Of a stretch of DNA of 32,000 nucleotides, positions 1 through 15,165 are shown in pieces (within the stretch, counting starts at the first letter, position 1; every line of letters starts with the position of its first letter). Under the pieces are notes generated by a model. It did not search any database, was not told the DNA's origin, and was given only the letters and a program-made list of their open reading frames with translations. The DNA comes from Variovorax sp. CAN15 (GTDB lineage: Bacteria > Pseudomonadota > Gammaproteobacteria > Burkholderiales > Burkholderiaceae_C). The position numbers and the translations under genes are program-made. The stretch spans positions 1-32,000 of the forward strand of contig NZ_JASMRZ010000049.1 in NCBI RefSeq assembly GCF_030462475.1, read 5' to 3'.

Positions 1-3000
1 GCGGGTGCACGCGGGGCGGGTGCGCTTTCACCAGTACCTGCAGTGGGTGGCCGACCGGCAGTTCTCACGCGTCGCAGCACGCTGCCGCGCGCTCGGAATG
101 GGCGTGGGTCTCTACACGGACCTGGCCGTCTCGGTCGATCGAGCGGGCTCCGATGCCTGGTCTTTCCAGGAAGGCTTCGCCGAAAACGCCAGCATCGGTG
201 CGCCGCCGGACGAGTTCAACCCGGCCGGCCAGCGCTGGGGTCTGCCGCCGTTGCGGCCAGCCAGCCTGCGCGCCGACGGCTATCGTTTCTTCATCGAGAC
301 GCTGCGCGCCAGCATGCGCGGCGCGGGCGCCCTGCGCATCGACCACGCGATGGGACTGATGCGGCTGTTCTGGATTCCGCCGGGGTGCGGCGCGGGAGAG
401 GGCGCCTACGTCTACTACCCTCTGGATGAAATGCTCGCCATCGTCGCCATCGAAAGCCACCGGCAGCGCTGCATGGTGGTTGGCGAGGATCTCGGCACGG
501 TCGAGGACGCGGTGCGCAACGGCCTCTCGCGGGCCGACGTGCTCTCGTACCGGCTTCTCTACTTCGAGCAGCGGCACGGCGGCGGCTTCAAGGCGCCCGC
601 CGAGTACCCGCCGGCGGCGCTGGTCGCGATCAGTACGCACGATCTGGCCACCTTCGCGGGCTGGTGGACGGCCGCCGATCTGCGCGAGCGGCTGGCGCTG
701 GGCCTGTTCCCCGATCCAGCGGTCTTCGACAGGCAACTGGCGGACCGCGTGCGCGAGCGCGTCGAGTTGATGCACTCGATGCAGCAGGAAGGCCTGCTGT
801 CGCGCGAGGAGATGGCGGAGGCGGCCGGTCTCGCGGCACCTTCGGAACGGGTGGTGGAGGCGGCGCATGCCTTCCTGGCCAGCACGCCGTCGGCGCTGAT
901 GATGGTGCAACTGGAGGACGTGGCCGGCACCATCGAGCAGGCCAATATGCCGGGCACGGTCGACGAGCATCCCAACTGGCGCCGCAAGCTGGCGCAGCCT
1001 GTCGCGGCGCTGGTGCAGGGCGATCGCATGCACGGGCTGGCCCGGTTGCTGCGCGAAGCGCGGCCGCGGCAGGTGCAAGGCGAAACGCCCGCCGGCCTGC
1101 AGGCGCGCATTCCACGCGCCACCTACAGGCTGCAGTTCCACAAGGACTTCGGCTTCGACGACGCGATCCGCGTGCTGCCGTACCTCGCGAAGCTGGGCGT
1201 GAGCCATGTCTACTGCTCGCCGATACAGCGTGCCCGCCCGGGCAGCATGCACGGCTACGACGTGGTCGCGCATACGGAGATCAACCCCGAGCTGGGCGGC
1301 GTGGAAGGCTTCGCGCGCTTCGTCGATGCGCTCAAGGCCAACGGCCTCGGCCAGTTGCTGGACATGGTGCCCAACCACATGGGAGTGTTCGGCGCCGACA
1401 ACGCATGGTGGATGGACGTGCTGGAAAACGGCCCTGCCTCGCTCTTCGCGCAGCACTTCGACATCGACTGGCAGCCGCTGAACCCCGAGCTGGCCGGCAA
1501 GGTGCTGCTGCCGGTGCTGGGTGGGCACTACGGCGAGACGCTGGATGGCGGAGAGCTGGTTCTGTGCTTCGAGGCAGCGGCCGGCAGCTTCGCCATTCGC
1601 TACTTCGAGCATCGTTTTCCGCTGGCGCCCGAGACTTATCCGGTGGTGCTGGAGCGGGCGCTCGAGCGGCTCGGCGATGCCGATGCGTCGCATCGGCTTG
1701 CGAGCCTGTCTACAGCCTTCGGACGCCTTCCTGGGCGTGACCTGGCATCGCCGCATGAGCAGGCCGAGCGAGTTCGCGACAAGGAACTGTGCAAGGCGCG
1801 CCTCGCGGATCTGGTGCAGAGCCAACCGTCGGTGGCCCATGCGCTTGCGGCCGCGACGGCGGAGTTCAACCTGGCCTCGGCGGAAGCTCGCGACGCGCTG
1901 CATCGGCTGATCGAGGCACAGGCCTACAGGCTCGCGCACTGGCGGGTGGCGGCCGACGAGATCAACTACCGGCGCTTCTTCGACATCAACGATCTGGCGG
2001 GCGTGCGCATGGAGCGCGGCGAGGTGTTCGAGGCGACTCAGTCGTTCGCTCTCGACCTGGCGGCTTCGGGCGTGGTGGACGGACTGCGGATCGATCATCC
2101 GGACGGGCTCTACGACCCGGCGGGCTATTTCCGCAAGCTCCAGGAAGGCTATGCGCGCCGCGCCGGACTGGTGCTGCCGACGCACGACGCCCAAGGCCGG
2201 CCCGCGCGGCCGCTCTACGTGGTGGCCGAGAAGATCGCGGCGGCGCACGAGGACGTGCCCGACAGCTGGCATGTGCACGGCACCACCGGCTACCGGTTCG
2301 CGAACGTGGCCAACGGCGTGCTGGTCGACACCGCCGGCAGGGATCGCGTGCTGCATGCCTGGCAGCGCTTCACCGGCGTGGTGGAAGACTTCGCCTCGAT
2401 CTGCCGCGACGGGCGGCGGGAGGTGATGCGCAATGCGCTGTCGTCGGAGCTCAACGTGCTGTCCGGCGTGCTGCTGCGGATCGCCCGGGCCGACCGGGGC
2501 ACGCGCGACTACACGCTCAACGCGCTTCGCCGCGCGCTGACGGGTGTATGCGCCTGCATGACCGTCTACCGCACGTACATCGTCGACGAGCCGTCCGCCC
2601 AGGACGGTCGCTTCATCGACGAGGCAGTGGCCGAAGCCGCGCGGCGCAGTGGGGATGCCGACCTGTCGGTGTTCGGCTTTCTGCGCGGCGCACTGCGCGG
2701 CGAGGCGTCCGCCGGAGCATCCCCCGCGCTGGCTGAACGGGTGCGCCGCTTCGCGATGCGCTTCCAGCAGTTCAGCGCGCCGGTGGCGGCCAAGGGTGTG
2801 GAAGACACGGCGTTCTACCGCTACTTTCCGCTGAGCTCGCTCAATGAGGTAGGCGGAGAGCCGGATCTCTTCGGCATCGAGATCGGGCAGTTCCACGCGC
2901 TTTCCGCCGACCGCGCGCTGCGCTGGCCGCACACCATGCTGGCGACATCGACACACGACAACAAGCGCTCGGAGGACGTGCGCAACCGGATCGACGTGCT

Positions 3001-3991
3001 CTCGGAAATTCCCGACGACTGGATGCGTGCGCTGGCGCGCTGGCACGGCAAGTGCCGCGGCACGCGCGCGAATCTGCCGGGCGGCGAGGCCCCGTCGCGC
3101 GCCGACGAATACCTGTTTTACCAGACGCTGCTGGGCACCTTGCCGCCGGGCGGGCTCGATGCGGATGCGCTGCCGGAGTACACGCAGCGCATCTGCCAGT
3201 ACATGCGCAAGGCCGCGCGCGAAGCCAAGCTGCGCACACGCTGGACCCAGCCGGACGAAGACTACGAAGCCGCGCTGGAGCACTTCGTGCAGGAAATCCT
3301 GGCTCCGGCTGAAAACGGGGAGGAGGGCGAGTGCCTGCGCGACATCCGGCTGCTGTCGGACCGGCTCGCGACGATCGGTGCATGGAACAGCCTCACGTTG
3401 ACGTTGCTGAAGTACGCCTCGCCGGGCGTGCCGGATCTCTACCAAGGCAGCGAACTGATCGCGCTGAGCCTCGTGGATCCGGACAACCGGCGGCCGGTGG
3501 ACTATGCGCTGCGCCAGCGGCTGCTCGAGGAACTGGACGGGATGGCCGGCGAGGATGGGCTCGCCCGGCGGGTTTGCGCGATGGCCGAGTCTCCGCACGA
3601 TGGACGGGCGAAGCTCTGGTTCATCTGGCGCCTGCTGTCCTTGCGCCGGGTACAGCCGCTGCTGTTTGACGAAGGCAGCTACGAGCCGCTGGAGGTCGAG
3701 GGCCCGCTGGCGGGGCACGTGGTCGCGTTCGCCCGGCGGCATGCCGACCAAACGGTGCTGGTTCTGGCGGCCCGCCTGTTCGCGTCCTTTTCCGGCGATG
3801 CTGCAACGCCGATGCTGCCGGAGCCGACGAAATGGAACGGCACGACGATCCGCCTGCCGGAAGGACTCGGTGGACGCTCGTTCCGCAACCTGCTGACCGG
3901 GGAGGTCGTTTCCCTCAAAGAACGGCTGGAGCTGACCGATGCATTCAACTCGATCCCATGGGCAGCATTGGCTCCTGACGCCACGCTCTGA
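1..3991 (+). CDS. Fused 4-alpha-glucanotransferase (MalQ-like, GH77; 5' end outside window) / maltooligosyl-trehalose synthase (TreY-like, GH13)
   Basis: One uninterrupted ORF, open at the window edge. The first ~355 aa carry amylomaltase-type motifs (RIDHAMGLMRLFWIP, VVGEDLGTV, ISTHDLATFAGWW, NMPGTVDEHPNWRRK). With no stop codon, a TreY-type domain then follows (ATYRLQFHKDFGFDD, LGVSHVYCSPI, MVPNHMG, GLRIDHPDGL, TSTHDNKRSEDVR). An in-frame GTG at 1073 lies near the junction, but no stop separates the two halves. Confidence 0.85.
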   Translation, partial: RVHAGRVRFHQYLQWVADRQFSRVAARCRALGMGVGLYTDLAVSVDRAGSDAWSFQEGFAENASIGAPPDEFNPAGQRWGLPPLRPASLRADGYRFFIETLRASMRGAGALRIDHAMGLMRLFWIPPGCGAGEGAYVYYPLDEMLAIVAIESHRQRCMVVGEDLGTVEDAVRNGLSRADVLSYRLLYFEQRHGGGFKAPAEYPPAALVAISTHDLATFAGWWTAADLRERLALGLFPDPAVFDRQLADRVRERVELMHSMQQEGLLSREEMAEAAGLAAPSERVVEAAHAFLASTPSALMMVQLEDVAGTIEQANMPGTVDEHPNWRRKLAQPVAALVQGDRMHGLARLLREARPRQVQGETPAGLQARIPRATYRLQFHKDFGFDDAIRVLPYLAKLGVSHVYCSPIQRARPGSMHGYDVVAHTEINPELGGVEGFARFVDALKANGLGQLLDMVPNHMGVFGADNAWWMDVLENGPASLFAQHFDIDWQPLNPELAGKVLLPVLGGHYGETLDGGELVLCFEAAAGSFAIRYFEHRFPLAPETYPVVLERALERLGDADASHRLASLSTAFGRLPGRDLASPHEQAERVRDKELCKARLADLVQSQPSVAHALAAATAEFNLASAEARDALHRLIEAQAYRLAHWRVAADEINYRRFFDINDLAGVRMERGEVFEATQSFALDLAASGVVDGLRIDHPDGLYDPAGYFRKLQEGYARRAGLVLPTHDAQGRPARPLYVVAEKIAAAHEDVPDSWHVHGTTGYRFANVANGVLVDTAGRDRVLHAWQRFTGVVEDFASICRDGRREVMRNALSSELNVLSGVLLRIARADRGTRDYTLNALRRALTGVCACMTVYRTYIVDEPSAQDGRFIDEAVAEAARRSGDADLSVFGFLRGALRGEASAGASPALAERVRRFAMRFQQFSAPVAAKGVEDTAFYRYFPLSSLNEVGGEPDLFGIEIGQFHALSADRALRWPHTMLATSTHDNKRSEDVRNRIDVLSEIPDDWMRALARWHGKCRGTRANLPGGEAPSRADEYLFYQTLLGTLPPGGLDADALPEYTQRICQYMRKAAREAKLRTRWTQPDEDYEAALEHFVQEILAPAENGEEGECLRDIRLLSDRLATIGAWNSLTLTLLKYASPGVPDLYQGSELIALSLVDPDNRRPVDYALRQRLLEELDGMAGEDGLARRVCAMAESPHDGRAKLWFIWRLLSLRRVQPLLFDEGSYEPLEVEGPLAGHVVAFARRHADQTVLVLAARLFASFSGDAATPMLPEPTKWNGTTIRLPEGLGGRSFRNLLTGEVVSLKERLELTDAFNSIPWAALAPDATL

Positions 3992-4017
3992 TCAAGAGCA
4001 AATCATCTGTTATCAAT

Positions 4018-4045
4018 ATTTAACATAATGCACATTGTGTCCAAT
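4018..4045. repeat. dif-like 28-bp XerC/XerD-type site (attL): ATTTAACATAA-TGCACA-TTGTGTCCAAT
   Basis: 4018-4028 is the exact reverse complement of the conserved XerD arm of E. coli dif (TTATGTTAAAT). A 6-bp spacer and an 11-bp second arm follow, and that arm matches the E. coli XerC arm at 6/11 positions. The spacer plus second arm recur at 13133-13149 with one mismatch. Confidence 0.6.
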
Positions 4046-4412
4046 GCGCCAGCATTCCGACCAGGTCAGTAGCTCCCGGGACCATCGAAAAAATCTGGTG
4101 TGCCGCTGCTCCAGCGGAACCGATAGCCGCGCCAGTCACTAGCAAAGCTTTTCCCAGCGCTTTCATGAGCGCGTCCCCCTTGGGCTTTCCCTCGTAAGCC
4201 TCGACTGTCGCGCGTGCCAGCACTTGCACCGGGTCGAGTCCGGCTATGTGGGCCATCAGTGCTTGGTCTGCCGGCGTGCATGCCTGGTGAGCGTGCCGCC
4301 AGTTGCTGATGCGTTGGCGGGTTACTCCCAGCGCGATCGCCAGTTTGTTGTCGCTGCCCGCTGCCTTTGCTGCCTTGTCGATTAGCAGGTTTAGTTCTTC
4401 GAGATGTTGCAT
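4020..4412 (-). CDS. Phage repressor-like HTH DNA-binding protein (Cro/CI / YdaS-like), with a hydrophobic C-terminal segment
   Basis: The ATG at 4412 gives MQHLEELNLLIDKAAKAAGSDNKLAIALGVTRQRISNWRH, a helix-turn-helix pattern. The gene is divergent from the phage forward operon. The track start at 4460 is a TTG and looks less likely. The last codons overlap the dif-like site. Confidence 0.7.
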   Translation of the reverse strand: MQHLEELNLLIDKAAKAAGSDNKLAIALGVTRQRISNWRHAHQACTPADQALMAHIAGLDPVQVLARATVEAYEGKPKGDALMKALGKALLVTGAAIGSAGAAAHQIFSMVPGATDLVGMLAHWTQCALC

Positions 4413-4492
4413 GTCTTTACTCACGTACAAGAATTGATGTACATTCCCGGCACGTATCAATATCTGTGAACGTACACGGACTGAGGGACATT
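4413..4492. promoter_or_regulatory. Divergent promoter/operator region of the prophage with repeated ACGTACA-type motifs
   Basis: AT-rich 80-bp gap between the repressor start (4412) and the first forward ORF (4493). It contains ACGTACA at 4423-4429 and 4470-4476, ACGTATCA at 4452-4459, and the palindrome TGTACA at 4438-4443. Confidence 0.45.
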
Positions 4493-4636
4493 ATGGCTCG
4501 GAGGGAACAGCTGTTACCAGCACGGCGACAACAGTCGCTTCCGGCGCGCGCGCGTGCCGGCCAATCCGGTGTCGGCATGGTCGCCATGTTCCTCGGCCGT
4601 CGCCCTCCAGCTCAGCAGCCGGTCAAGCAGCAATGA
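4493..4636 (+). CDS. Small basic hypothetical protein (47 aa), possible first gene of the phage forward operon
   Basis: ATG preceded by GAGGGA at appropriate spacing. The stop overlaps the next ATG (ATGA at 4633-4636). The composition is Arg/Gln-rich, so coding status is uncertain. Confidence 0.3.
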   Translation: MARREQLLPARRQQSLPARARAGQSGVGMVAMFLGRRPPAQQPVKQQ

Positions 4637-4947
4637 GTAAGCAAGCCCAGTACTTCCTGCGCATGTGGTACGGCGTCTTGGCGCGTCTGGAGCACCCCCG
4701 CCACAGTGCTCAATTCGACCGTGAGCTTTTCGAGGATGAGCATCGAGTGCGCATCCTGGCCGCCGACTTGATCGGATGGGGCGTCAGCCGGCCGGACGAG
4801 CCGGCCGCGCGGAGCGGAGCGACTCGCGAGCCGGCGCTGTCGGCCGTGAACCCGCTCCCGAATTTTTGTCAGGCGGGCGTGGTAGCACCGCCTGACAGTC
4901 TCATGCACGAGAAAAGCGCCGTTATCGGGCGCGGGGTGCAGGCATGA
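4633..4947 (+). CDS. Hypothetical phage protein (104 aa)
   Basis: ORF in the forward phage operon, coupled by ATGA overlaps to both neighbours. Its composition is less biased than that of the antisense ORF 4612-4908. No family recognised. Confidence 0.5.
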   Translation: MSKQAQYFLRMWYGVLARLEHPRHSAQFDRELFEDEHRVRILAADLIGWGVSRPDEPAARSGATREPALSAVNPLPNFCQAGVVAPPDSLMHEKSAVIGRGVQA

Positions 4948-5174
4948 CGAACGGTGTCCTGCCTTTTTTCCTCTATACGGGTTCGGGCGCGTCGACTTGC
5001 TACGTTATTTCATGGACCGGCCGTCGCATCGATGGCGACGATGTCGAGCCGCAGGTGTATCGCGTTGTGTGTCATGGCGTGAAAGCTGCCCGTGCTGCGC
5101 AGGATGGGCTTCGCGCTCGTGGGTTCACCGTCACGTGCGAACAGGTGGCGTTCTATCGGGTTGGTGGCGACTGA
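4944..5174 (+). CDS. Hypothetical phage protein (76 aa)
   Basis: Coupled ORF. Its start overlaps the previous stop, and its stop TGA overlaps the ATG of the replication gene (TGATG at 5172-5176). No family recognised. Confidence 0.5.
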   Translation: MTNGVLPFFLYTGSGASTCYVISWTGRRIDGDDVEPQVYRVVCHGVKAARAAQDGLRARGFTVTCEQVAFYRVGGD

Positions 5175-6358
5175 TGGCCTACGACACCATCAAGCTCCGC
5201 TCCCCGTTCATGGACCTGTCCGTCATGCGCCGGATCGAGCAGCAATGCATCCTGCGTTCGGGCATGCATCTCGGTACTGGCGAGATCCTGTACGAACTGC
5301 ACGCCGGCGAGCTGCTCGGGAGCTGGGATGCCCGCATCGGGATCAAGCCGATGCATGAGGAGCACGTGGCTGACAAGAACGGCCGCGTTCGGCTGCAGCC
5401 CTGCGAGCCTTACTTGCTTATCGAGGCCAGCGTGCACAAGGTGCTGCTTGGTCACAACGTCTATGGCGGGCCGACCAACTTCCTGGAGGCCGCGCGCTAT
5501 CTGGTCGCGCTCATCGAGAAGCTGCTGGACACGGATTTGCCAGCTGCAGACAACTGGACGGTGCACCGCGTTGACGTGGCGAACGTCTTCGTGCTCTCCC
5601 CTGCCGGCATCAAACAGTTTTTCGATTCGATGCAGCTCATGAGCTTTCCGCGCCGTGGTGCGAAGGCGATGAAGTGCGCGATGAGCATTTACTTCCCGGG
5701 CAAGACCACGACCGTGAAGTTCTATCACAAGGGCTCCGAGTTCAAGGTGCACGACTACGCCAGGCTGCGCCGCTTTTTCCGCACCCTCTTCGATCACTTG
5801 CACGGCACCGACGAGAAGAACCCCGAGCGCGTCGAACGCAAGCTGCGCGCTCTTCAACGTCTCGCTGATCGACGCCTGCGCGTCGAGGTCGAGATCCACT
5901 CCGACAAATTGCAGTACGACTTCGGACGGAACCCCACCGCCGCCGAGATCGGGGATGAGTACCTGCAGCGCATTCACGACAGCGAAATCGAACGAATCCT
6001 TCGCGAAGGAAAACAAGGCATGGACACCGTACGCACCGAAGAGGCCGTGTGGCAGCGCCTCCAGTCTCGCTACCCGCAAAAGCTCGCCCACGTGCTGCAT
6101 GCCTTCTGGCAAACGATGGCCACGCGCGGCGACGACAAGGCGAAGGAGCGTTACACGAAGCCGACCTTCTACCGCAATCGCAAGCTGCTCGAAGAGGTTG
6201 GCGTGAGCTGGCGCGGCAGCGACATCGTCCTGGTGGCGAACGATTCCTTAATCCATGACTTCACGCCCATGAGGGGCGACAGGCGGTTCTGCAATCAACC
6301 GGCTCGGAACCGCCCCGAGTACCACGTCAGCCGGGATTTGATGCGCCTCGCGGCGTAG
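5174..6358 (+). CDS. Rolling-circle replication initiator, filamentous-phage gene II-like (Phage_CRI / Rep_trans type)
   Basis: The ATG at 5174 gives MAYDTIKLRSPFMD..., about 394 aa. It sits first in the replication module, directly upstream of a ~100-aa candidate ssDNA-binding gene. The WTVHRVDVANVF segment resembles the conserved RxDxA motif of this Rep family. The track start at 4997 overlaps the upstream ORF and is rejected. Confidence 0.65.
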   Translation: MAYDTIKLRSPFMDLSVMRRIEQQCILRSGMHLGTGEILYELHAGELLGSWDARIGIKPMHEEHVADKNGRVRLQPCEPYLLIEASVHKVLLGHNVYGGPTNFLEAARYLVALIEKLLDTDLPAADNWTVHRVDVANVFVLSPAGIKQFFDSMQLMSFPRRGAKAMKCAMSIYFPGKTTTVKFYHKGSEFKVHDYARLRRFFRTLFDHLHGTDEKNPERVERKLRALQRLADRRLRVEVEIHSDKLQYDFGRNPTAAEIGDEYLQRIHDSEIERILREGKQGMDTVRTEEAVWQRLQSRYPQKLAHVLHAFWQTMATRGDDKAKERYTKPTFYRNRKLLEEVGVSWRGSDIVLVANDSLIHDFTPMRGDRRFCNQPARNRPEYHVSRDLMRLAA

Positions 6359-6370
6359 GAGTGAAAGCAC

Positions 6371-6694
6371 ATGAACGCAGTTGTTCAACCCGCCGGCATG
6401 CAATTTTCGCGTGCGAAACCGATGGAGGTCCTGGTCAAGGGCCGTATCGATGCTCGTCGTCGTCACGATGGCACGCACTACACGCGTGTGCTCACGCCGG
6501 CGCCGGATGCGTATAGCCGTCCGCAGGTGGTTGAGATCCGCAGTAAGCAGTCCCTCGGCGCGACGGGTGACGAAATCGAGAAGCTGTGCAAGCTCGGCGG
6601 CTATACGCGCAAGGCCTTCCGTACGACCGACAAGGAAACCGGTGAAACCACGATGGTGACGCCGGTGGATCTGACGCTCGACGAGATCGAGTGA
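6371..6694 (+). CDS. Candidate ssDNA-binding protein (gene V equivalent), 107 aa
   Basis: The size and its position immediately after the Rep gene match the inovirus g5p slot. No motif recognised with certainty. Confidence 0.45.
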   Translation: MNAVVQPAGMQFSRAKPMEVLVKGRIDARRRHDGTHYTRVLTPAPDAYSRPQVVEIRSKQSLGATGDEIEKLCKLGGYTRKAFRTTDKETGETTMVTPVDLTLDEIE

Positions 6695-6867
6695 TGCCCT
6701 CCCCCGCCGCCGCCCTCGCCTTCGCCGTCGCTGGCTTCTTGCTGGCGATGGTTGTTGTCGGGCTCATCTGGGTCGACGGCGAACGCGCTGCCAAGCGTGA
6801 TCGCATTGAGCGCGTGCGCCGTCGCGATCACTCGAAGGTGCCTTCAATCCACTCGGCTTCTCGCTGA
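6694..6867 (+). CDS. Small single-pass membrane protein (57 aa), not in the supplied ORF track
   Basis: Hand translation gives MPSPAAALAFAVAGFLLAMVVVGLIWVDGERAAKRDRIERVRRRDHSKVPSIHSASR. The ATG overlaps the previous stop (TGATG at 6692-6696). It has an N-terminal TM helix and a basic tail. Confidence 0.5.
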   Translation: MPSPAAALAFAVAGFLLAMVVVGLIWVDGERAAKRDRIERVRRRDHSKVPSIHSASR

Positions 6868-6880
6868 TCCGAGGAAAACC

Positions 6881-7174
6881 ATGGCTGCAATTGATGTGTC
6901 TGCTCTCGGTACTGCCTTGCTTGAGAACGCGCAGGCCGTGTCTCTCGTCGGCGTCGCTTGCCTCGGCATTTGGGGTGCGATCAGCGCATTCCGAGTGCTT
7001 CGAGAGCTGCTTGAAATCGGTTCGTCGGCGTCGTCTGGCAGGGGTGGCGGCGGTGGCGGGTCGTCTTCGTTGGATCGGCTTGCTGAGGCTCGTGCGCACG
7101 CGCAGCAGATGCAGTTGACTGGCGAGGGGCAGTCCGCTGCGTATGCAGAGCATGAGGCGCGAGGCGGCAAGTGA
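6881..7174 (+). CDS. Leaderless coat-protein paralogue with Gly/Ser-rich and charged C-terminal extension (97 aa)
   Basis: The ATG at 6881 follows GAGGAAAACC. Residues 2-44 (AAIDVSALGTALLENAQAVSLVGVACLGIWGAISAFRVLRELL) align without gaps to the predicted mature major coat (AAIDVAAVVTDIGAQAAPIGLIGVAVLLIYGAVKAFKWVRAAL), with about half the positions identical. Confidence 0.6.
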   Translation: MAAIDVSALGTALLENAQAVSLVGVACLGIWGAISAFRVLRELLEIGSSASSGRGGGGGGSSSLDRLAEARAHAQQMQLTGEGQSAAYAEHEARGGK

Positions 7175-7272
7175 TCCGCTGGCTTGTCCGCACGTTCGGC
7201 CGTAGTTTTGTCTGGAAGCTCGGCGCGCTCGCTGCCGTCGCGGCGGTGGCTTTCGTCAAGGCGTACTTCTGA
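7171..7272 (+). CDS. Micro-ORF, 33-aa membrane peptide (g7p/g9p-like slot), not in the supplied ORF track
   Basis: The GTG at 7171 overlaps the upstream stop (GTGA). Translation gives MIRWLVRTFGRSFVWKLGALAAVAAVAFVKAYF. Its stop overlaps the next ATG (TGATG at 7270-7274). Confidence 0.45.
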   Translation: MIRWLVRTFGRSFVWKLGALAAVAAVAFVKAYF

Positions 7273-7472
7273 TGGCTGATCCCACTGTCATCGAATGCGC
7301 ATCCGCGTGCACCGTCACCGTGGTGCACGAACTCTCTCTTCCTCCGCTTCAGCTCAGCACTGAAGAGGGGGCACAAATCGCGCTCGCCATCAGCGCGGTC
7401 TGGGTCGTTGGCTGGGCCATCCGCATGGTCCTGAAGACGCTCAGTACTTCCGATGGAAACCAACCTGAGTAA
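7272..7472 (+). CDS. Small membrane protein (66 aa), minor virion/assembly protein slot
   Basis: Coupled ORF with a hydrophobic helix (GAQIALAISAVWVVGWAIRMVL), located just upstream of the major coat gene. Confidence 0.55.
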   Translation: MADPTVIECASACTVTVVHELSLPPLQLSTEEGAQIALAISAVWVVGWAIRMVLKTLSTSDGNQPE

Positions 7473-7485
7473 AGGAAATTTCGAC

Positions 7486-7689
7486 ATGAACGCAAACATC
7501 GTTCGCGGCCTCGTTGCCGCTGGTGCTCTGACCCTCGTGGGCGGTGCGAATGCCGCCGCCATCGACGTGGCGGCTGTGGTCACCGACATCGGCGCACAGG
7601 CCGCTCCGATCGGTCTGATCGGCGTGGCCGTGCTGCTGATCTACGGCGCGGTGAAGGCCTTCAAGTGGGTGCGCGCAGCTCTGAGCTGA
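7486..7689 (+). CDS. Major coat protein (g8p-like) with cleavable leader
   Basis: The ATG at 7486 follows AAAGGAAA. The leader is MNANIVRGLVAAGALTLVGGANA with an A-x-A cleavage motif. The ~44-aa mature peptide has an acidic N-terminus (AAIDVAAVVTD), a hydrophobic core and a basic C-terminus (KAFKWVRAALS). That pattern is the inovirus coat signature. Confidence 0.8.
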   Translation: MNANIVRGLVAAGALTLVGGANAAAIDVAAVVTDIGAQAAPIGLIGVAVLLIYGAVKAFKWVRAALS

Positions 7690-7811
7690 TCCCCCGCTGA
7701 GCGCACCTGGTGGACGCGCCAGGTGCCTTGTTCAAAGCGGTCGCGTTGACTGCTTCGCACAGGGCAACGACACATGGGCCTCTTCGTCATCATCGCAATC
7801 CTGGGGGCCTT

Positions 7812-9284
7812 GTGGCTCATCTTCTCCGCCTGATCCTGGCCGCCGTGCTGGCGGTTTTCTCGGTGTCGGTGCATGCGCTGATTCCGGTATCGGACTCCTG
7901 GTCTTTCAACGCCGCGCAGTACGGTGATTCCGGCAAGCAAGGGTCTGGCTTCGCGTCTGCGCAAGCTGCTTGCGATGCGTACGTCAACGCGCAAAAGGCT
8001 TCCATACCGTCGTGGACCTTTGGTTCTGGTGCTGTCGGTGCGGCCGCATCGCCCGCGAGTATTTGGGGTGACTTCAAGTGCACCGTCTATGCCAATAACG
8101 GGTCTATCGGTCCGATGCAGGCTGGTCTTTACAAGAGTGCTGGTGGTAGCTGTCCCGCTAACAGCACGCTTGTTTCTTCGTTGAATCAGTGCTCATGCAA
8201 CGCGAACTATGAAGAGGATTCGACGCACACGAGTTGCGTGCCCTCTAAGTCGCGGTGGGAGAAGGCGTGTGAGGGCAACATTGGCAAGCGCTACAACTTT
8301 CAGTCCGCTGGTAAGAACCAGGCTGGCGGCTGCCAGACCGAAATTAACAACGTCAATTCGCCCATCGAGGGCGATACGGGTGGCTTGCCCGATTCGTTCG
8401 GTTGCCAGGTGCGTTTCGTTGATGACGGCAGTAAGACGTCGGCGCTTGATCCAGACACCAAGGAGTGGGTCACGAAGGGCCTCGGCCGTGTTACCGGCGA
8501 GACCTGTGTTGGTACTGGCGTGCCAGTGCCTAGCGACGCTCCCGAGGGCACCACGCAGGAATCCGAGGGCAAGAACGATCAGTGCCCCTATGGGCTGGTG
8601 AAGGGTGTCAACGGGCAGATCGTGTGCGCGTACAGCGATCCCAATGGCACCATCGAAGGCACGGAGACCAGCACCGTCAAGAACCCCGACGGCACGTCGA
8701 CTGACACCAAGAAAGAGATCAAGTGCGATGGTGGTGTGTGCACGACGACGACAACAACGACGACACGCGATAGCGCGGGCACCATCGTCGGCACGAAGAT
8801 CGATGAGAAGAAAGAGTCCATCGGGGAGACGTGCAACAAGGACCCGGGCAATAAGGTGTGTGCCACCACGGGCGGTGGAGGTTCTGATGGTGGTGCTGGG
8901 TTCAGTGGTACGTGCGAGGCTGGCTTTCAGGCCAAGGGTGAGGATCCTGTGTTGAACGCGATGGCGCTTGAACAGTACAAGCGCAATTGCGAGACCTTCC
9001 GTACCGACATGGAGCCGTCGACGTGGGTTGTTGCCGAAGGCCAGAAGACCGGCAACGCCATGGAGGGCAATCCCAACAATGGGTCCGTAAGTGTCGGCCC
9101 CGGCAACTTCGACCAGTCCGATGCACTCGGCGGTGGCGGTTGCAATCTCAACAAGACGGTCGTGGTGCGCGGCTACAGCGTCGCCCTGCCCTTCAACGTC
9201 CTGTGTGACCCGCTCGCTGTGTTGGGTCAGATCCTGGTGGCCGTCTCGCTCCTGTTGGCGGCTCGTATCGTCACAAGGGGGTAA
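7812..9284 (+). CDS. Adsorption / minor coat protein (g3p-like), secreted, Cys-rich, C-terminally anchored
   Basis: The in-frame GTG at 7812 gives a signal peptide (AHLLRLILAAVLAVFSVSVHA). The track start at 7710 is an alternative. The protein has many Cys residues, a poly-Thr tract (CTTTTTTTRD), Gly-rich linkers (TTGGGGSDGGAGFSG, GGGG) and a terminal TM anchor (LGQILVAVSLLLAARIVTRG). It sits between the coat gene and the g6p-like gene. Confidence 0.65.
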   Translation: MAHLLRLILAAVLAVFSVSVHALIPVSDSWSFNAAQYGDSGKQGSGFASAQAACDAYVNAQKASIPSWTFGSGAVGAAASPASIWGDFKCTVYANNGSIGPMQAGLYKSAGGSCPANSTLVSSLNQCSCNANYEEDSTHTSCVPSKSRWEKACEGNIGKRYNFQSAGKNQAGGCQTEINNVNSPIEGDTGGLPDSFGCQVRFVDDGSKTSALDPDTKEWVTKGLGRVTGETCVGTGVPVPSDAPEGTTQESEGKNDQCPYGLVKGVNGQIVCAYSDPNGTIEGTETSTVKNPDGTSTDTKKEIKCDGGVCTTTTTTTTRDSAGTIVGTKIDEKKESIGETCNKDPGNKVCATTGGGGSDGGAGFSGTCEAGFQAKGEDPVLNAMALEQYKRNCETFRTDMEPSTWVVAEGQKTGNAMEGNPNNGSVSVGPGNFDQSDALGGGGCNLNKTVVVRGYSVALPFNVLCDPLAVLGQILVAVSLLLAARIVTRG

Positions 9285-9286
9285 CC

Positions 9287-9586
9287 ATGCCACTCATCCT
9301 CGCGCTGTTGTTGCGCGGTCTTCTCTGGGTCTCCGGCAGTGTCGCCGGCCAGGTGCTGCTGCGACTCGGCATCGGTGTCGTCACGTACACCGGCACCAAT
9401 GCCAGTCTCGCCTGGTTGAAGTCGCAGGCCGTCTCTGCGCTTCAGGGCATGGGCGGTGATTACATCGCCCTCCTCTCCTACATGAAGGTCGGTGTCTGCA
9501 TCAGCATCATCACCAGCGCCATCGTGGCGCGTGCTGTCGTCACGGGCATTACCAGTGACAGCGTCAAGCGCTGGGTGTTGAAGTGA
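9287..9586 (+). CDS. Minor coat protein g6p-like (DUF2523-type)
   Basis: 99-aa multi-hydrophobic-segment protein (GQVLLRLGIGVVTYTGTNASLAWLKSQ...). This is the pattern and position of DUF2523 proteins that precede Zot in Pf/Xanthomonas-type inoviruses. Confidence 0.65.
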   Translation: MPLILALLLRGLLWVSGSVAGQVLLRLGIGVVTYTGTNASLAWLKSQAVSALQGMGGDYIALLSYMKVGVCISIITSAIVARAVVTGITSDSVKRWVLK

Positions 9587-9750
9587 CTGATCTCGCTTTG
9601 TCGTTGGTGTGTTTGGCGCTGGCGTTCGTCAGTTGGGCTGGTGCGAATCGTGCGATCGATGCTGATGACGACAGTACGGTCATTCGATATCTGGTTGTTA
9701 TGGCTGGCCTTGGCGGTATCGGGTTGGCCAACACTGTTGGGCGGTTCTGA
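9583..9750 (+). CDS. Small membrane protein (55 aa), not in the supplied ORF track
   Basis: The GTG at 9583 overlaps the g6p-like stop (GTGA). Translation gives MTDLALSLVCLALAFVSWAGANRAIDADDDSTVIRYLVVMAGLGGIGLANTVGRF. Its stop overlaps the Zot ATG (TGATG at 9748-9752). Confidence 0.4.
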   Translation: MTDLALSLVCLALAFVSWAGANRAIDADDDSTVIRYLVVMAGLGGIGLANTVGRF

Positions 9751-10958
9751 TGCTGTATCTCCGCACTGGGGCCAATGGCTCCTGCAAGTCCCTCTTCACG
9801 CTCAAGGATGTGCGCGAGAAGCAGCTCGCCGAGCTGCGGCCGGTCTGCGTCATCGTCGGTGACGATACCGATCCGACCAGGCAGTACGTGAAGATCAAGC
9901 CAGCGATCATGGAGGAGTTCGGCTGGAAGACCTGCCAGTTCAAGGACTGGTGGGCGCAGGCCGATGGCACGATCTTCCTGGCCGATGAATGCCATAACTA
10001 CCTGCCCAAGCGTCCGAATGGATCTGCAGTTCCGCAGTACGTCAGCCGCCTGGCCGAGCATCGAGCTCGTGGCATGGACTTCTTCCTGCTTACCCAGCAT
10101 CCGAGCAACATCGACAGCTTCGTGACGAAGCTGGTCGGGTCGCCTGGCTGGCACCAGCATCTCAAGCGGGCGTTCGGTGCGTCCAACGTGACCAGCGTGA
10201 TCCAGTGGTCGGCGGTCAACAACCAGTGCGAGAAAGATGGCTCGGGCAAGTCTGGCCAGGTCGACATGCGCAGTCAGCCGAAGGATGTGTTCGTCTGGTA
10301 CGACAGCGCCGAGCTGCACACCGGTAAGCGCAAGATCCCGCGCCAGTTCTGGATGGTCGCCGTCGGTGTGCCGCTGGCGCTCGGCATGTTCTTCATGGCC
10401 GCGAAGCTGCTCTGGGATCGCACCCACAAGTCCACCGTGGTGCAGGCTGGCCAGCCTGGCCAGGCCGGACCTGGAGCGCCTGGTGCGGCAGCTGCTGCAC
10501 GCGATCACGTGATGACGCCAACCGAGTACATCGCCAGCTACAAGCCACGTGTGCCTGGCTTGATGCATTCGGCGCCGGCGTACGACAAGCTGACGGAGCC
10601 GAAGCGTGTGCCGGTGCCGGCCGCGTGTGTCTCGATGCCGTCGAAGGGTTGCAAGTGCTACACGCAAGATGCGACGCCCTATCCGGTCGACCAGGCCATG
10701 TGCGATGGCCTGGTCAAGCATGGCGCGTTCTACGCTTTTGCGGCTGAAGGTGAGCGCAAGGCCTACGATCAGCCGCGTATCGCCCGCCAAGGCCCGGAAA
10801 CGGCCCTTCCTGGGGCTGTCGCTCCGATCCTGATCGACGGGGGCCCTAAGTCGCCCGGTGCCGCTACGACGGTCGCAACCGCGGTGCCGCCAGATCTGGG
10901 CAGTCAGCCGCGTGTCCGGCCTGGCTCGCCATGGTCGTTCGAGCTCCCTGCACGTTGA
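9750..10958 (+). CDS. Zonula occludens toxin-like assembly ATPase (g1p / Zot family)
   Basis: N-terminal P-loop (LRTGANGSCKS) and a Walker-B-like IFLADECH. It also has the EHRARGMDFFLLTQHPSNID block typical of Zot/g1p. A central TM segment (FWMVAVGVPLALGMFFMAAKLLW) is followed by a periplasmic tail. Confidence 0.8.
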   Translation: MLYLRTGANGSCKSLFTLKDVREKQLAELRPVCVIVGDDTDPTRQYVKIKPAIMEEFGWKTCQFKDWWAQADGTIFLADECHNYLPKRPNGSAVPQYVSRLAEHRARGMDFFLLTQHPSNIDSFVTKLVGSPGWHQHLKRAFGASNVTSVIQWSAVNNQCEKDGSGKSGQVDMRSQPKDVFVWYDSAELHTGKRKIPRQFWMVAVGVPLALGMFFMAAKLLWDRTHKSTVVQAGQPGQAGPGAPGAAAAARDHVMTPTEYIASYKPRVPGLMHSAPAYDKLTEPKRVPVPAACVSMPSKGCKCYTQDATPYPVDQAMCDGLVKHGAFYAFAAEGERKAYDQPRIARQGPETALPGAVAPILIDGGPKSPGAATTVATAVPPDLGSQPRVRPGSPWSFELPAR

Positions 10959-10964
10959 AGTGAA

Positions 10965-11010
10965 AAAGCCGCCCTCGGGCGGCTCCGCCCTCGGGCGGCT
11001 TCGTTTTTTC
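10965..11010. terminator. Tandem GC hairpins with flanking A/T runs, acting as a bidirectional intrinsic terminator between Zot (+) and the ParB-like gene (-)
   Basis: The sequence is AAAAAGCCGCCCTCGGGCGGCTCCGCCCTCGGGCGGCTTCGTTTTTT. It contains two copies of a CCGCCC-TCG-GGCGG stem-loop, with an A-run upstream and a T-run downstream. Confidence 0.7.
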
Positions 11011-11021
11011 GCACGCGAAAC

Positions 11022-12080
11022 TCACACTATGGTCGCGCGGATCTCGATGGCGAGATCTCGGAGCGTCAGGTCGATGTTGTTGGCACCGAGGATGTAGGCG
11101 GCGGTGTCTTCGGTGCTCGGGTAGTTGTCTATCCATCGCGCGATTCGGCGCATGGCGTCGAGCTTAGTTGCCGTCACGAGCTGGTGGCCTGACTGCCATG
11201 CCTCTACTACGTATTCGCACATGACCTGTTGTTGTTCAGCGGTCAGCTTTCCGATGACTGCGTCGAGATCGACGTTCTCGCTGGGCTTGAGTTCGTCGAT
11301 CAGATCGTCAAAGCCATGACTTGCCGTCCAGCTCGGTGTCTTTTGCTCTGTGACTGGTGCGTTCTTGGCTTTCGCTTTCTTTTTCGCGGAGGCCTTTTTC
11401 TCGGCTGCGATCTTCTCCTTGATTTCGGCCAGTAGCGCGCGTGCTTCCGTGCGGCCGGCCTTGCCGGTTTCGATGGCGTCGAGCAGCTGCTGTTGCGGTC
11501 TGCCCCACGCGAGCGTTTCGATCTGCGAGATCGTTAGCACCAGGTCGAGGTCTTCCGTCTTGCCGCTGTCCAGCAGCATGCGCGCGCGCCAGCTCAGCTT
11601 CGTGGCCGCTGCTAGGTGCTTCGACACCCATGGCAGCGATTTGCCCGTCAGCGCCGCGATGGGTTTCAGCGCCTGGTGCTTGTCGTAGAGCTTCTTTACG
11701 TTGGCCGCGAGATCCTGCACGCTCAGGTCTTCGCGCTGGATGTTTTCCACGAGCTGCATTTCGGCCGCCTTGGCCGCGTCGATCTCGCCGATGAGGGCGG
11801 GCACGGCGGTAAGGCCTGCCAGGTGTGCTGCGCGTACGCGTCGCTCGCCGGCGATGATGATGAAGCTGCCCATCTTGTCCGGATCTGGGCGCAACAGGAC
11901 GGGCTGCATCATGCCCTGCTGCTTCATGCTCTCGGCCAGCTCCTGCAGCGTTGCTTCGTCGAAGAACGTGCGGACCTGGTCCTCCGCGCGGATGTTCTCG
12001 AGCGAGATGAATTGCAGCGCAGGCGCTGCCGGTGTGGTGGTCGCCGGTGTTGCCGGCGTCTTGCGGGTCTTCGTGGCCAT
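11022..12080 (-). CDS. ParB/Spo0J-like N-terminal domain protein (352 aa) with a Lys-rich linker and an unassigned C-terminal domain
   Basis: ParB-box motifs QPVLLRPDPDKMGSFIIIAGERRVRAAHLAGLTAVPALI. A KKASAKKKAKAK linker follows. The ~130-aa C-terminal region was not recognised. Confidence 0.75.
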   Translation of the reverse strand: MATKTRKTPATPATTTPAAPALQFISLENIRAEDQVRTFFDEATLQELAESMKQQGMMQPVLLRPDPDKMGSFIIIAGERRVRAAHLAGLTAVPALIGEIDAAKAAEMQLVENIQREDLSVQDLAANVKKLYDKHQALKPIAALTGKSLPWVSKHLAAATKLSWRARMLLDSGKTEDLDLVLTISQIETLAWGRPQQQLLDAIETGKAGRTEARALLAEIKEKIAAEKKASAKKKAKAKNAPVTEQKTPSWTASHGFDDLIDELKPSENVDLDAVIGKLTAEQQQVMCEYVVEAWQSGHQLVTATKLDAMRRIARWIDNYPSTEDTAAYILGANNIDLTLRDLAIEIRATIV

Positions 12081-12083
12081 GGC

Positions 12084-12386
12084 TCAGTACTCCTGGCGGA
12101 AGGTGAAGCCGTCGGCCAGGATCGACTTGTCGTAGGATTTCCACGCGATGTGAGAGCCGCGCGGCAGGTTGTCTGGTGCGTCGAGGTTTCCTGCCATCTG
12201 CCAATCCATGAAGAAGTCGCCCGTAACGTCGCCTGCGCATTCATGAGCGTATGGATGGCGGCATGGTGTGAATGCGCCTCCGAAGGTCGGTGGCGTCACC
12301 AGCTCGAGCTGGGCCTGGCTGGGGGTGGTCGCCGGCGCGAGTTGCGCTGCGGCGAAGGATGCGAACGAGATCTGAGTAGCGGACAT
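12084..12386 (-). CDS. Hypothetical protein (100 aa), first gene of the reverse-strand ParB-like operon
   Basis: The ATG at 12386 is preceded by AGGAG (CAGGAGTCCACATG on the minus strand). It ends 3 nt before the ParB-like ATG, and the ParB-like SD (AGGAG) lies within its last codons. No family recognised. Confidence 0.55.
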   Translation of the reverse strand: MSATQISFASFAAAQLAPATTPSQAQLELVTPPTFGGAFTPCRHPYAHECAGDVTGDFFMDWQMAGNLDAPDNLPRGSHIAWKSYDKSILADGFTFRQEY

Positions 12387-12444
12387 GTGGACTCCTGGAA
12401 GTTGGGCTGTTGAAGGGAATACCTTCAGCAGTCGCTTCCTCGCT

Positions 12445-12463
12445 CCCCTCGCAGGGCGAGGGG
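12445..12463. other. Short perfect hairpin CCCCTCGC-AGG-GCGAGGGG
   Basis: 8-bp stem with a 3-nt loop in the phage non-coding region. The same CCCCTCGC arm recurs at the apex of the large hairpin at 12494-12604. Confidence 0.5.
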
Positions 12464-12493
12464 CGGGGGGGAGTGGGTTGCTCGTGCAACAAG

Positions 12494-12604
12494 AAAAATC
12501 CGGCCAGTGCCGGAATCCCGCATAAAAAACACCCCCGTTGCGCCCCTCGCAAAAGCGTGGGGTCAACGGGGGTGTTTGCGGGATTCCAAGCTGGTCGGAT
12601 TTTT
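12494..12604. other. ~111-nt imperfect hairpin in the main phage intergenic region (candidate packaging signal and/or origin structure)
   Basis: Three paired blocks: 12494-12507 with 12591-12604 (one G-T pair), 12512-12522 with 12577-12587, and 12528-12540 with 12564-12576. An apical extension CCCCTCGC-AAAA-GCGTGGGG has one mismatch. In total ~45 bp are paired, with small bulges. Confidence 0.6.
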
Positions 12605-12756
12605 CAGTGGGTAGCTATCGCCAAAAGCACCAGGCGTGACATAGCGCAGCGGGAAGGTAGCGAAGCGGACGGCTGGCGCGACTGGTGACTTGGCGATGCG
12701 GCCTCGAGGTCACGCAGCTGGTGCACACAGATCCGCCGCGGGGCGGCGCCCTCCCC

Positions 12757-13017
12757 TCAATCTGCCCGCATGTCGGGAGTTGAGATCGTCAGCTTGAGGC
12801 CGTCTCGCAGCTCCGGCGTATTCCTGGTCGAGCGCATTTCTCTGTTCGCGTCCATGAAGCCATCGCGCACAGCTATACGAATGACCCAGTAGAGAAGCCA
12901 CAGTGTGATTGCTGTCGAGATCGCTCCAATGATGAAGAGCACGACGAGCTCCTGTCCTGCCTGGTGCTGTGCCTGGCGCACCATCTGGTCAAGGTGTCTT
13001 TGTAGTTGTGGGTCCAT
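12757..13017 (-). CDS. Small membrane protein (86 aa), hypothetical
   Basis: Unbiased composition with one clear TM helix (LVVLFIIGAISTAITLWLLYWVI). It lies inside the predicted prophage, next to attR. No family recognised. Confidence 0.45.
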   Translation of the reverse strand: MDPQLQRHLDQMVRQAQHQAGQELVVLFIIGAISTAITLWLLYWVIRIAVRDGFMDANREMRSTRNTPELRDGLKLTISTPDMRAD

Positions 13018-13018
13018 G

Positions 13019-13048
13019 AAAAAGGCCTCCGATCGGAGGCCGTATTTT
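13019..13048. terminator. Hairpin GGCCTCC-GATC-GGAGGCC flanked by an A-run and a T-run (bidirectional terminator-like)
   Basis: 7-bp GC stem at 13024-13041, with AAAAA at 13019-13023 and TATTTT at 13044-13048. On the minus strand the stem contains the GGAGG that would serve as the SD for ORF 12757-13017. Confidence 0.5.
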
Positions 13049-13121
13049 GCTGGTAGTCTTAACGAGATTTACATTTTTTCAAGCGAATTTCGCTTGACAT
13101 AAGCCCGATTGTGTTCTGCTA

Positions 13122-13149
13122 AATCGAGCTTTTGCACATTGTATCCAAT
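13122..13149. repeat. Second dif-like copy (attR): AATCGAGCTTT-TGCACA-TTGTATCCAAT
   Basis: The spacer and right arm match the 4029-4045 copy except for one G/A difference. The left arm does not resemble a XerD arm (4/11 to ATTTAACATAA). This is what a phage-derived half-site would look like. Confidence 0.55.
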
Positions 13150-13197
13150 GCCACACCAGTTCGGACGACGCTCAAACCTTCTGAGCCTAGACGAAGC

Positions 13198-14681: not shown

Positions 14682-14778
14682 CGGAAATGATGGAGTGCGC
14701 GGCGCATGCCCTTCTGGGGCCTCCATGGGAGGTTGCGCCGTCGACCGAGTTCCGCGTCACGAGGACGGGGCGGAAAAC

Positions 14779-15165
14779 TCAGATGGTTTGCGTGGGGCGG
14801 TCGGAGGCCATCGAGCCGCCGAGCGCCGCTTCGATGCGCGCCTTCAGCTGGCGCGACTTCTCGTCGGAAGGAAAACGGATGCCCACGCCCGGAGCCCGGT
14901 TGCCGGCGGCGCGCGGCGGCGTGATCCAGGCGACCTTGCCGGCCACGGGGTAGCGCTGCGGATCTTCCGGTAGCGTCAGCAGCACGTAGACGTCGTCGCC
15001 CAGGCGGTATTCGCGCGTGGTCGGGATGAAGATGCCGCCCTCCGCGAACAGCGGGATGTAGGCCGCGTACAGCGCGCCCTTTTCCTTGATGGCGAGCTGG
15101 ATGACGCTCGGCCGGGCGGGTGCGGAAGATGCTGCGGGCGCAGCGGATGCGGCAGGTTGGTTCAT
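14779..15165 (-). CDS. pilZ: PilZ-domain protein (type IV pilus assembly PilZ type)
   Basis: 128 aa with LYAAYIPLFAEGGIFIPT...LGDDVYVLLTLPED...GKVAWITP...GVGIRF. The conserved holB-pilZ-tatD context supports the call. Confidence 0.8.
   Translation of the reverse strand: MNQPAASAAPAASSAPARPSVIQLAIKEKGALYAAYIPLFAEGGIFIPTTREYRLGDDVYVLLTLPEDPQRYPVAGKVAWITPPRAAGNRAPGVGIRFPSDEKSRQLKARIEAALGGSMASDRPTQTI

Follow-up and report, generated by a model that had tools for sequence, protein, structure and literature searches.

The window analysed here comprises 32,000 nucleotides (nt) of Variovorax sp. CAN15 (contig NZ_JASMRZ010000049.1, positions 1–32,000 of the forward strand), and its PilZ, Tmk and TatD proteins are identical to those of Variovorax sp. 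CAN2819/CAN15. An inovirus prophage of 9,104 bp (4029–13132, + strand), one attP-equivalent unit (attP being the phage attachment site) with a G+C content of ~0.61, lies between two chromosomal flanks. Its extent was established from Pfam and PHROG matches, the gene calls of the source contig and the alignment to an empty site. On the left is the 3′ portion of a long gene for a MalQ/TreY-type glucanotransferase-amylase (5–3991, + strand; Pfam Glyco_hydro_77 and Alpha-amylase), hereafter treY. The right flank consists of ank, tatD, pilZ, holB, tmk and yceG (13198–17853, − strand), which run toward the prophage. At the junction of treY and the prophage is a 28-bp site (4018–4045, − strand). Comparison with related sequences indicates that this site is very probably the chromosome dimer-resolution site (dif) of Variovorax, that it was entered by a 9.1-kb integrase-less filamentous phage, and that it now doubles as the left attachment site (attL) of the prophage. 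A sequence-only reading of the window had placed a dif-like site at the left prophage boundary, and the inovirus prophage does begin there. Two further sites, absent from that reading, are described below: the partner at the right end (13122–13149) and a second dif-like site beside it (13092–13119).

Sequence and lineage of the dif site

On the + strand, positions 4018–4045 read ATTTAACATAA (4018–4028), TGCACA (4029–4034) and TTGTGTCCAAT (4035–4045). The − strand accordingly presents a XerC arm ATTGGACACAA, a central region TGTGCA and a XerD arm TTATGTTAAAT. This is the 11-6-11 geometry of dif over 28 bp, with a 6-bp spacer and a match at all 11 positions of the XerD arm, and the letters are as the sequence-only reading had described them. 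Its claim that 4018–4028 corresponds, once reverse-complemented, to the XerD arm of E. coli (TTATGTTAAAT) holds exactly against the published E. coli dif, GGTGCGCATAATGTATATTATGTTAAAT (Kono et al. 2011, BMC Genomics 12:19, Table S1). The 11-mer ATTTAACATAA occurs once in the window; allowing up to two mismatches gives four matches against 0.25 expected, and none of 100 shuffled sequences reached four. The complete 28-mer occurs once in the window, even at three mismatches. The site marks the left border of a stretch with reduced G+C content (0.58–0.64, compared with 0.67–0.70 in the flanks).

The XerC arm had been described as divergent. The count behind that description is correct, as ATTGGACACAA matches the E. 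coli arm GGTGCGCATAA at 6 of 11 positions, but the arm is a Comamonadaceae-type XerC arm rather than a degenerate copy of the E. coli one. The site is identical at 25 of 28 positions to the predicted dif of chromosome I of V. paradoxus S110 (AAGGAACACAA TGTGCA TTATGTTAAAT), which lies 0.35% from the GC-skew shift point (Kono et al. 2011). The two sites belong to the same genus and share the XerD arm, the spacer TGTGCA and the inner XerC half ACACAA; they differ at three outer XerC-arm positions (ATTGG versus AAGGA), and the window site holds a prophage. The XerC arms of Acidovorax, Delftia, Rhodoferax, Polaromonas and Verminephrobacter, all Comamonadaceae, end in A[C/T]AC[G/A]A (Kono et al. 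2011), and the window arm fits the corresponding pattern nnnnnA[C/T]AC[G/A]A. Therefore, the apparent divergence of the XerC arm is the norm of the family. Recognition of the XerD arm by eye can thus place dif correctly even where the XerC arm looks wrong.

The gene block yceG-tmk-holB-pilZ-tatD-ank, followed by an equivalent site, is found in other Variovorax genomes, many of them phage-free, and the ank flank adjoins dif in all Variovorax genomes examined. Loci of the V. boronicumulans group (L039–43) carry ATTT[T/A]ACATAA TGCACA TTGTGTT[G/T]ATT; the S110 sequence is present exactly, at the orthologous ank-proximal locus, in three chromosomes of the V. paradoxus group (L050/51/53), and variant sites occupy the same locus in L046, L048 and L049. 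The orthologous locus resides on chromosomes of 5.4–7.3 Mb. In five of the seven chromosome-scale Variovorax records it is found at 51.6%, 49.2%, 51.3%, 50.3% and 52.2% of the record, where record starts may not be oriC. The proposal that the window lies at the replication terminus is thus supported by orthology, with the locus at 49–52% in these five records, and by the position of the S110 dif relative to the skew shift.

The polarity of FtsK-orienting polar sequences (KOPS) gives a further indication. The motif GGGNAGGG, which is that of E. coli and may not be the one used by Variovorax, is found in one orthologous locus (L040) five times on the + strand and never on the − strand on the ank side of the site, and in the reverse proportion, none on the + strand and four on the − strand, past it. 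The same strand switch is seen in L039, L041 and L043, with one exception each, and in L026, a prophage-free relative described below, where two + strand motifs are followed by two − strand motifs across the site. In the window, the two chromosomal motifs rightward of the site lie on the − strand. The convergence of KOPS that the sequence-only reading had suggested checking is therefore present, with the polarity flipping at the site. The genes on both sides also converge on the site. Taken together, the match to the lineage, the orthologous loci, the position on the chromosome, the KOPS switch and the convergence of genes lead to the assignment of the site as the chromosomal dif, which fixes the position of the terminus and of dimer resolution in this Variovorax genome.

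Scans with the exact pattern ATTTAACATAA-N6-TTGTRTCCAAT returned four matches among genome contigs, three of them in metagenome-assembled genomes (MAGs) of Burkholderiales; the fourth, from Kangiella, lies in low-GC sequence and was judged a chance match. The same pattern matched one metagenome contig, a close relative of L002. These scans missed the Variovorax orthologues because the outer bases of the XerC arm differ between species. A scan of viral contigs for TGCACATTGTRTCCAAT gave five matches on contigs of 32–47% G+C, which were treated as chance.

Four distant Burkholderiales MAGs (L002, L003, L004 and L025; identity to the window 46% for Tmk and 34% for Ank) have both dif arms in the same form as the window, and their spacers differ (TACACA, TCTACA). 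The site of L003 follows tmk-holB-ank, and in L002, L004 and L025 only the end of an adjacent ank-like gene and a DUF1178-like gene are seen. In all four, the site has the opposite orientation relative to ank and faces the DUF1178 or DUF1178-like gene.

Empty site, attachment sites and a second dif-like site

The insertion is defined by a prophage-free relative, an 86-kb contig from ENA (L026) that encodes the PilZ of the window and in which ank is followed directly by a treY-like gene. Its intergenic sequence reads …tcaat ATTTAACATAA TGCACA TTGTGTCCAAT gccacacc…, which gives an empty locus of the form treY-ATTTAACATAATGCACATTGTGTCCAAT-ank, with the same 28-mer as in the window and with treY adjoining dif. 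The flanks of the window are 98.2–98.6% identical to L026. Window positions 1–4047 and 13133–25174 both align to it with an overlap of 19 bp, corresponding to a precise insertion of 9,104 bp, and the window from 13150 rightward is contiguous with dif in L026. The 19-bp direct repeat bounding the insert consists of the spacer, the XerC arm and two more bases (GC). Since the prophage-free L026 carries the 28-mer between the same genes, the 28-mer is chromosomal and older than the phage, and the phage was inserted within it. The locus thus displays the features of an IMEX (integrative mobile element exploiting Xer), namely an insertion in dif, flanking repeats derived from dif and a precise empty site in a relative. 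The earlier suggestion that a phage had hijacked the site is borne out by this arrangement, an integrase-less inovirus between repeats of the spacer and XerC arm.

At the left junction, the XerD arm (4018–4028) is chromosomal and the copy of the XerC arm (4035–4045), identical to the arm of the empty site, is delivered by the phage attP. The right junction (attR, 13122–13149, − strand) is a hybrid of a pseudo-XerD arm AATCGAGCTTT (13122–13132), the spacer TGCACA (13133–13138) and the chromosomal XerC arm TTGTATCCAAT (13139–13149). The phage-derived AATCGAGCTTT matches the XerD arm at 4 of 11 positions, and by analogy with related systems attR is probably unusable for FtsK-driven recombination. 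The XerC arm of attR differs from that of attL at one base; the two junctions and the empty site share one spacer sequence. The parts of attP can be assigned by topology, because the XerD arm at 4018–4028 remains with the treY flank and the XerC arm at 13139–13149 with the ank flank. On this basis attP is reconstructed as AATCGAGCTTT TGCACA TTGTGTCCAAT, and the circular junction of the replicative form is predicted to read …AATCGAGCTTT TGCACA TTGTGTCCAAT GCGCCAGC…. As in attP sites of the TLCφ type, a degenerate XerD arm accompanies a XerC arm and a dif-matching central region.

In other Variovorax strains the same dif is occupied by two further inoviruses of ~6.2–6.7 kb with a Rep_trans-type Rep (L044/L058, CP138496.1; L052/L056, CAXUQQ020000001.1). 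Empty V. paradoxus loci (L055) read ATTTAACATAA TGCACA TTGTGTTCCTT. In the L056 lysogen, which carries a 6.2-kb inovirus, the far junction reads ATTTAACATAA TGCACA TTGTGTAATTT and the ank-side junction ATTCGGCGATA TGCACA TTGTGTTCCTT. Comparison of L055 and L056 therefore reveals arms swapped on either side of the spacer, as predicted for a XerCD crossover. In L056, the outer XerC-arm half of the host was changed on integration from TTCCT to AATTT (strand orientation of the window), and such IMEX traffic could drive the divergence of XerC arms between strains. The inoviruses of L056 and L058 encode a homologous helix-turn-helix (HTH) regulator, with attP at the 3′ end of its gene. With three different filamentous phages in one site across strains, the Variovorax dif is a place where phages without an integrase settle repeatedly, and Comamonadaceae of soil and the rhizosphere join the bacteria in which IMEX are known. 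No account of filamentous prophages at the dif of Variovorax was found in the literature that was searched. The locus is a clear, if ordinary, further case of something already known, namely an inovirus IMEX in a dif typical of its lineage.

A second dif-like site, site A (13092–13119, − strand), lies in direct orientation to the core of attP, 2 bp to its left. Its sequence is GCTTGACATAA GCCCGA TTGTGTTCTGC (− strand GCAGAACACAA TCGGGC TTATGTCAAGC), with matches to the arms at 15 of 22 positions, where 0.09 such sites are expected per window. Counterparts are present in L056 (12660–12687; GCTTGACATAA GCCGTA TTGTGTCTCGC) and L058 (12040–12067; GCTTGACATAA CCGTTT TTGTATCTGCG), such that site A is found 1–2 bp from the core in three Variovorax inoviruses, with the left arm and the inner right arm kept and the spacer varying. 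Because the spacer is free to vary, site A appears to be a binding rather than a recombining site. Judging from this pattern of conservation, it may be an accessory XerCD-binding site that recruits XerCD beside a core without a XerD arm. Alternatively, its left arm, which overlaps a conserved palindrome (TCAAGC-N7-GCTTGA), could have been kept because the palindrome is a repressor operator. The TTGACA of site A was also considered as a promoter −35 box; no convincing −10 box was seen by eye, with no scan run.

Three IMG/VR relatives by Rep (L015, L023 and L024; 59–65% identity) have the reverse attachment logic. In L015 and L024, a XerD arm is present at both junctions (identical in L024, one base apart in L015) with the same spacer and a degenerate phage-side XerC arm; the L024 junctions read ATTTAACATAA TGCAAA GTGTTAGGGGC and …TTACACGCGTT. 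Only one such XerD-arm junction is seen in L023. As their attachment logic is opposite to that of the window phage, related Rep modules can be accompanied by different att modules. No att repeats were found in the closest Rep relatives (L011–L014), the records of which do not appear to include the junctions.

Proposed integration by the host recombinases and alternative readings

The anatomy of the junctions suggests that the double-stranded replicative form of the 9.1-kb phage would insert at dif through recombination, by host XerC and XerD, of dif with an attP core that has the same central region and XerC arm and an unrecognisable sequence in place of the XerD arm. A crossover in or beside the central region would leave two sites. 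On the treY side, the product would be a complete dif (chromosomal XerD arm, spacer and phage-borne XerC arm) that should still resolve dimers. On the ank side, it would be a crippled hybrid (pseudo-XerD arm, spacer and chromosomal XerC arm) that FtsK-activated XerD could not readily use, so that the prophage would not be excised at each division. Judging from TLCφ and the gonococcal genetic island, the lack of a XerD arm at the right site should thus keep FtsK from driving the prophage out. The dependence of integration on Xer is inferred from this anatomy, as is the order of strand exchange.

Among known systems, TLCφ of V. cholerae has a similar attP, with a good XerC arm, a central region matching dif and no bona fide XerD arm (PMC6744903, PMC4246890), and the integrated element is likewise flanked by one functional dif and one crippled site. 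TLCφ is, however, a satellite that encodes XafT (HTH plus DUF3653), whereas the Variovorax element is a complete inovirus with an extra dif-like site and no detectable DUF3653. The Xanthomonas phages Cf1c, Xf109, φLf and XacF1 are dif-integrating inoviruses in which attP consists of the XerC arm and spacer only, as in the Variovorax element. The attP of Xf109 reads ACTTCGCATAA TGTATA followed by unrelated sequence and lies inside a Cf1cp8-like HTH gene. The Xanthomonas phages differ in carrying a DUF3653 gene immediately downstream, next to attP, in the opposite orientation of attP relative to the HTH gene, and in a host dif with a canonical XerC arm. By its sequence features, the Variovorax element would work like an IMEX of the TLC/Cf1c type but fails one defining feature, the XafT-like DUF3653.

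Other systems resemble the element less closely. The difA/difB pair of the gonococcal genetic island is similar in that a degenerate XerD arm at one flank blocks FtsK-driven excision (PMC6744903), but this is a 57-kb secretion-system island and not a phage. CTXφ and VGJφ, both inoviruses that lack an integrase, likewise rely on XerCD at dif. In CTXφ the substrate is a hairpin folded in single-stranded DNA from two inverted sites, whereas the sites of the Variovorax phage are direct repeats; site A (13092–13119) and the core are direct and 30 bp apart, and as no inverted partner was found, the CTXφ type was excluded. In VGJφ both arms are present and the spacer is mismatched on the XerD side, whereas the Variovorax core lacks a XerD arm and its spacer matches fully. 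Assignment to the VGJφ type was therefore excluded, given this core and the identity of the spacer at both junctions and in the empty site.

Several observations weigh against the reading of the locus as a dif entered through a TLC-like route. The source genome is represented by a single 38-kb contig, and the single copy of the site is a result for the window. The locus is at 74% and 27% of the record in two of the seven chromosome-scale Variovorax records, where again record starts may not be oriC. Local GC skew, in both the window and L026, switches sign ~4 kb to the right of the site and not at the site. The skew in orthologous loci tracks gene strand rather than replichore, and genome-wide skew is very weak in Variovorax (GC skew index, GCSI, 0.028; Kono et al. 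2011). Given this weakness and the displaced sign change, local GC skew was not used as evidence in either direction. At position 13143, the attR XerC arm (TTGTATCCAAT) has A where TTGTGTCCAAT has G at attL (4039) and in L026. A 2.3-kb contig from another sample (L027), with 99.3% identity to the window, terminates exactly in the A form, and a strain polymorphism, or a later mutation in a site now free of selection, would explain the difference. Finally, the known activator of the TLC-like route was not detected. No DUF3653/XafT match was obtained in the prophage with Pfam at E values up to 10, and a custom hidden Markov model (HMM) built from seven Xanthomonadales phage DUF3653 proteins, with which held-out true members score 1e-34 to 1e-42, gave a best E value of 0.4 over 178 six-frame open reading frames (ORFs), a result with which a very remote homologue is compatible. 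The same model found none in L056 and L058. A weak BLAST alignment to XafT/DUF3653 was dropped since it falls in the intergenic hairpin region.

Alternative identities for the site are improbable to differing degrees. The 28-mer could be viewed as the attL end of the phage, a mimic of dif rather than the dif of the host, as its XerC-arm copy (4035–4045) is topologically phage-derived and the phage HTH gene runs through the site. This is refuted by the complete 28-mer between the same chromosomal genes in the prophage-free L026 and is further contradicted by orthologous sites in many phage-free Variovorax genomes, leaving a mimic extremely improbable. It is also very unlikely that the site is of Xer type and serves something other than main-chromosome resolution, as the dif of a secondary replicon or as a decoy. 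Some Variovorax, such as S110, do have two chromosomes with a dif each (Kono et al. 2011), and the single contig and the off-site skew noted above would accommodate this. However, the orthologous locus is on 5.4–7.3-Mb chromosomes near the middle of five of seven records, KOPS polarity flips at the site, and the sequence equals or closely resembles the published dif of chromosome I, not that of chromosome II.

For integration itself, a TLCφ/Cf1c-like route is tentatively favoured. Lacking a XerD arm, the attP would depend on a helper for the engagement or activation of XerD, and this helper, which would be something other than DUF3653, could be the neighbouring conserved site A or a small phage protein that is itself conserved. 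Somewhat doubtful, and still to be taken seriously, is a XerC-first exchange at the border of the XerC arm and spacer, with the Holliday junction resolved by replication as for VGJφ and CTXφ and no activator needed. By default, XerCD acts on dif through XerC-first exchange (PMC6744903), an order that would suit the undetectable DUF3653/XafT in all three Variovorax inoviruses. Yet an attP with no recognisable XerD arm and a fully matching spacer goes, in V. cholerae, with XerD-first, XafT-dependent integration; V. cholerae plasmids with degenerate XerD arms integrate poorly without XafT (PMC9226527); and the conserved extra dif-like site beside the core suggests the need for a helper that recruits XerD. 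Integration by a phage function (the HUH Rep pII, the ParB-N nuclease-like protein or an unrecognised recombinase), with the dif-like sequence as merely a preferred target, is highly improbable. Four small ORFs (orf104, orf76, orf100 and orf86) have no assigned function and ParB-N is unusual in an inovirus, but no tyrosine or serine recombinase or DDE domain was found with Pfam and PHROG, and the unassigned ORFs encode 76–104 amino acids. Moreover, the repeat is exactly the spacer plus XerC arm, the arms of L055 and L056 are swapped around the spacer as a Xer crossover predicts, and the same att cassette serves two further Variovorax inoviruses, whose Rep belongs to a different family (Rep_trans).

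An extension of the favoured TLCφ/Cf1c-like route, on present evidence rather unlikely, is that Variovorax inoviruses share a portable cassette (HTH regulator, XerD-arm-less attP and accessory site) that confers TLC-like dif integration without DUF3653/XafT. With such a cassette, the tandem site, with its good XerD arm and varying spacer, would recruit XerD in cis, or an unrecognised small phage protein would act as the activator. If the cassette exists, each integration would replace the outer XerC-arm half of the host, a possible driver of the unusual XerC-arm diversity among dif sites of Variovorax and other Comamonadaceae. Without a XerD arm or XafT, and with a conserved dif-like neighbour, the attP of the window phage offers a tractable system for Xer activation without FtsK or XafT, a question shared with the gonococcal genetic island.

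Gene content of the prophage and flanks

The prophage has the hallmarks of Inoviridae: a rolling-circle Rep (pII), a single-stranded DNA-binding protein, a coat B protein, a pI/Zot ATPase and a genome of 5–10 kb. From left to right, it contains a Cf1cp8-like HTH regulator (4020–4412, − strand; phrog_638, E = 3e-13, YdaS-type HTH), orf104 (4633–4947), orf76 (4944–5174), the pII-type Rep (5174–6358; Phage_CRI, 1.8e-14), the single-stranded DNA-binding protein (6371–6694; phrog_8473, 1.8e-38), two coat-B-like proteins (6881–7174 and 7453–7689; Phage_Coat_B, 4.8e-15), a pIII-like protein (7812–9284), a pVI-like DUF2523 protein (9287–9586), Zot/pI (9750–10958; Zot, 3.6e-13; phrog_197, 7.8e-51), a 352-residue ParB-N protein (11022–12080, − strand; PF02195, 3.9e-23), orf100 (12084–12386, − strand) and orf86 (12757–13017, − strand). 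No recombinase was identified among the plausible ORFs of the prophage in the Pfam and PHROG scans. With the Zot of two inoviruses of Ralstonia, PE226 and p12J, the Zot protein shares 33–37% identity. When the prophage was compared by Megablast with GenBank phages, one 50-nt element, discussed below, was the sole match. The ParB-N protein is unusual cargo for an inovirus and could serve in partition of the replicative form or act as a nuclease.

The HTH regulator is 40% identical to ORF10 of Xf109, the gene of which likewise contains attP. The 3′ end of the HTH gene runs through the attachment site, such that the protein ends in …TQCALC* in the prophage and in …TQCAKARFSRTQSGLCQAKFA* in the replicative form. 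Homologues are found at the same position in L056 and L058, and the prophage-form tail in L056 is the same. This gene was missed by the gene caller of the source assembly.

Two non-coding elements can be recognised in the prophage; a scan of the window with Rfam returned no match. A near-perfect hairpin of 113 nt (12493–12605, + strand) is located in the phage intergenic region, with a DNA fold of −52.9 kcal/mol (z = −11), and is probably a packaging signal or minus-strand origin. Because of this hairpin, a long TTG-start ORF (12084–12566) is considered unreal in its 5′ part. The second element (4863–4919, + strand), which includes a hairpin (4867–4897), is 93–100% identical over 38–57 nt in most Rep-related inoviruses, where the DNA of the adjacent Rep gene is only 64–77% identical; the match in L011 starts further upstream and is 85% identical. 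This element, which probably serves as the nick site of Rep or as the plus-strand origin, falls within the annotated orf104 and is 94% identical over 50 nt to sequences in the GenBank 'WC36-1' phage records.

The three KOPS motifs GGGNAGGG inside the prophage (6697, 9184 and 12749) are all on the − strand, an orientation that would steer FtsK to the intact left dif and that, with three motifs, may be due to chance. In the chromosomal surroundings, a gene for a 471-residue protein is inserted between ank and dif in OZ344941.1 (L043, 11666–13081); it has matches to HTH domains only and is possibly a transposase. A gene for VgrG, the spike of type VI secretion (window 23266–25602, + strand), is located ~10 kb from dif and is syntenic across Variovorax.

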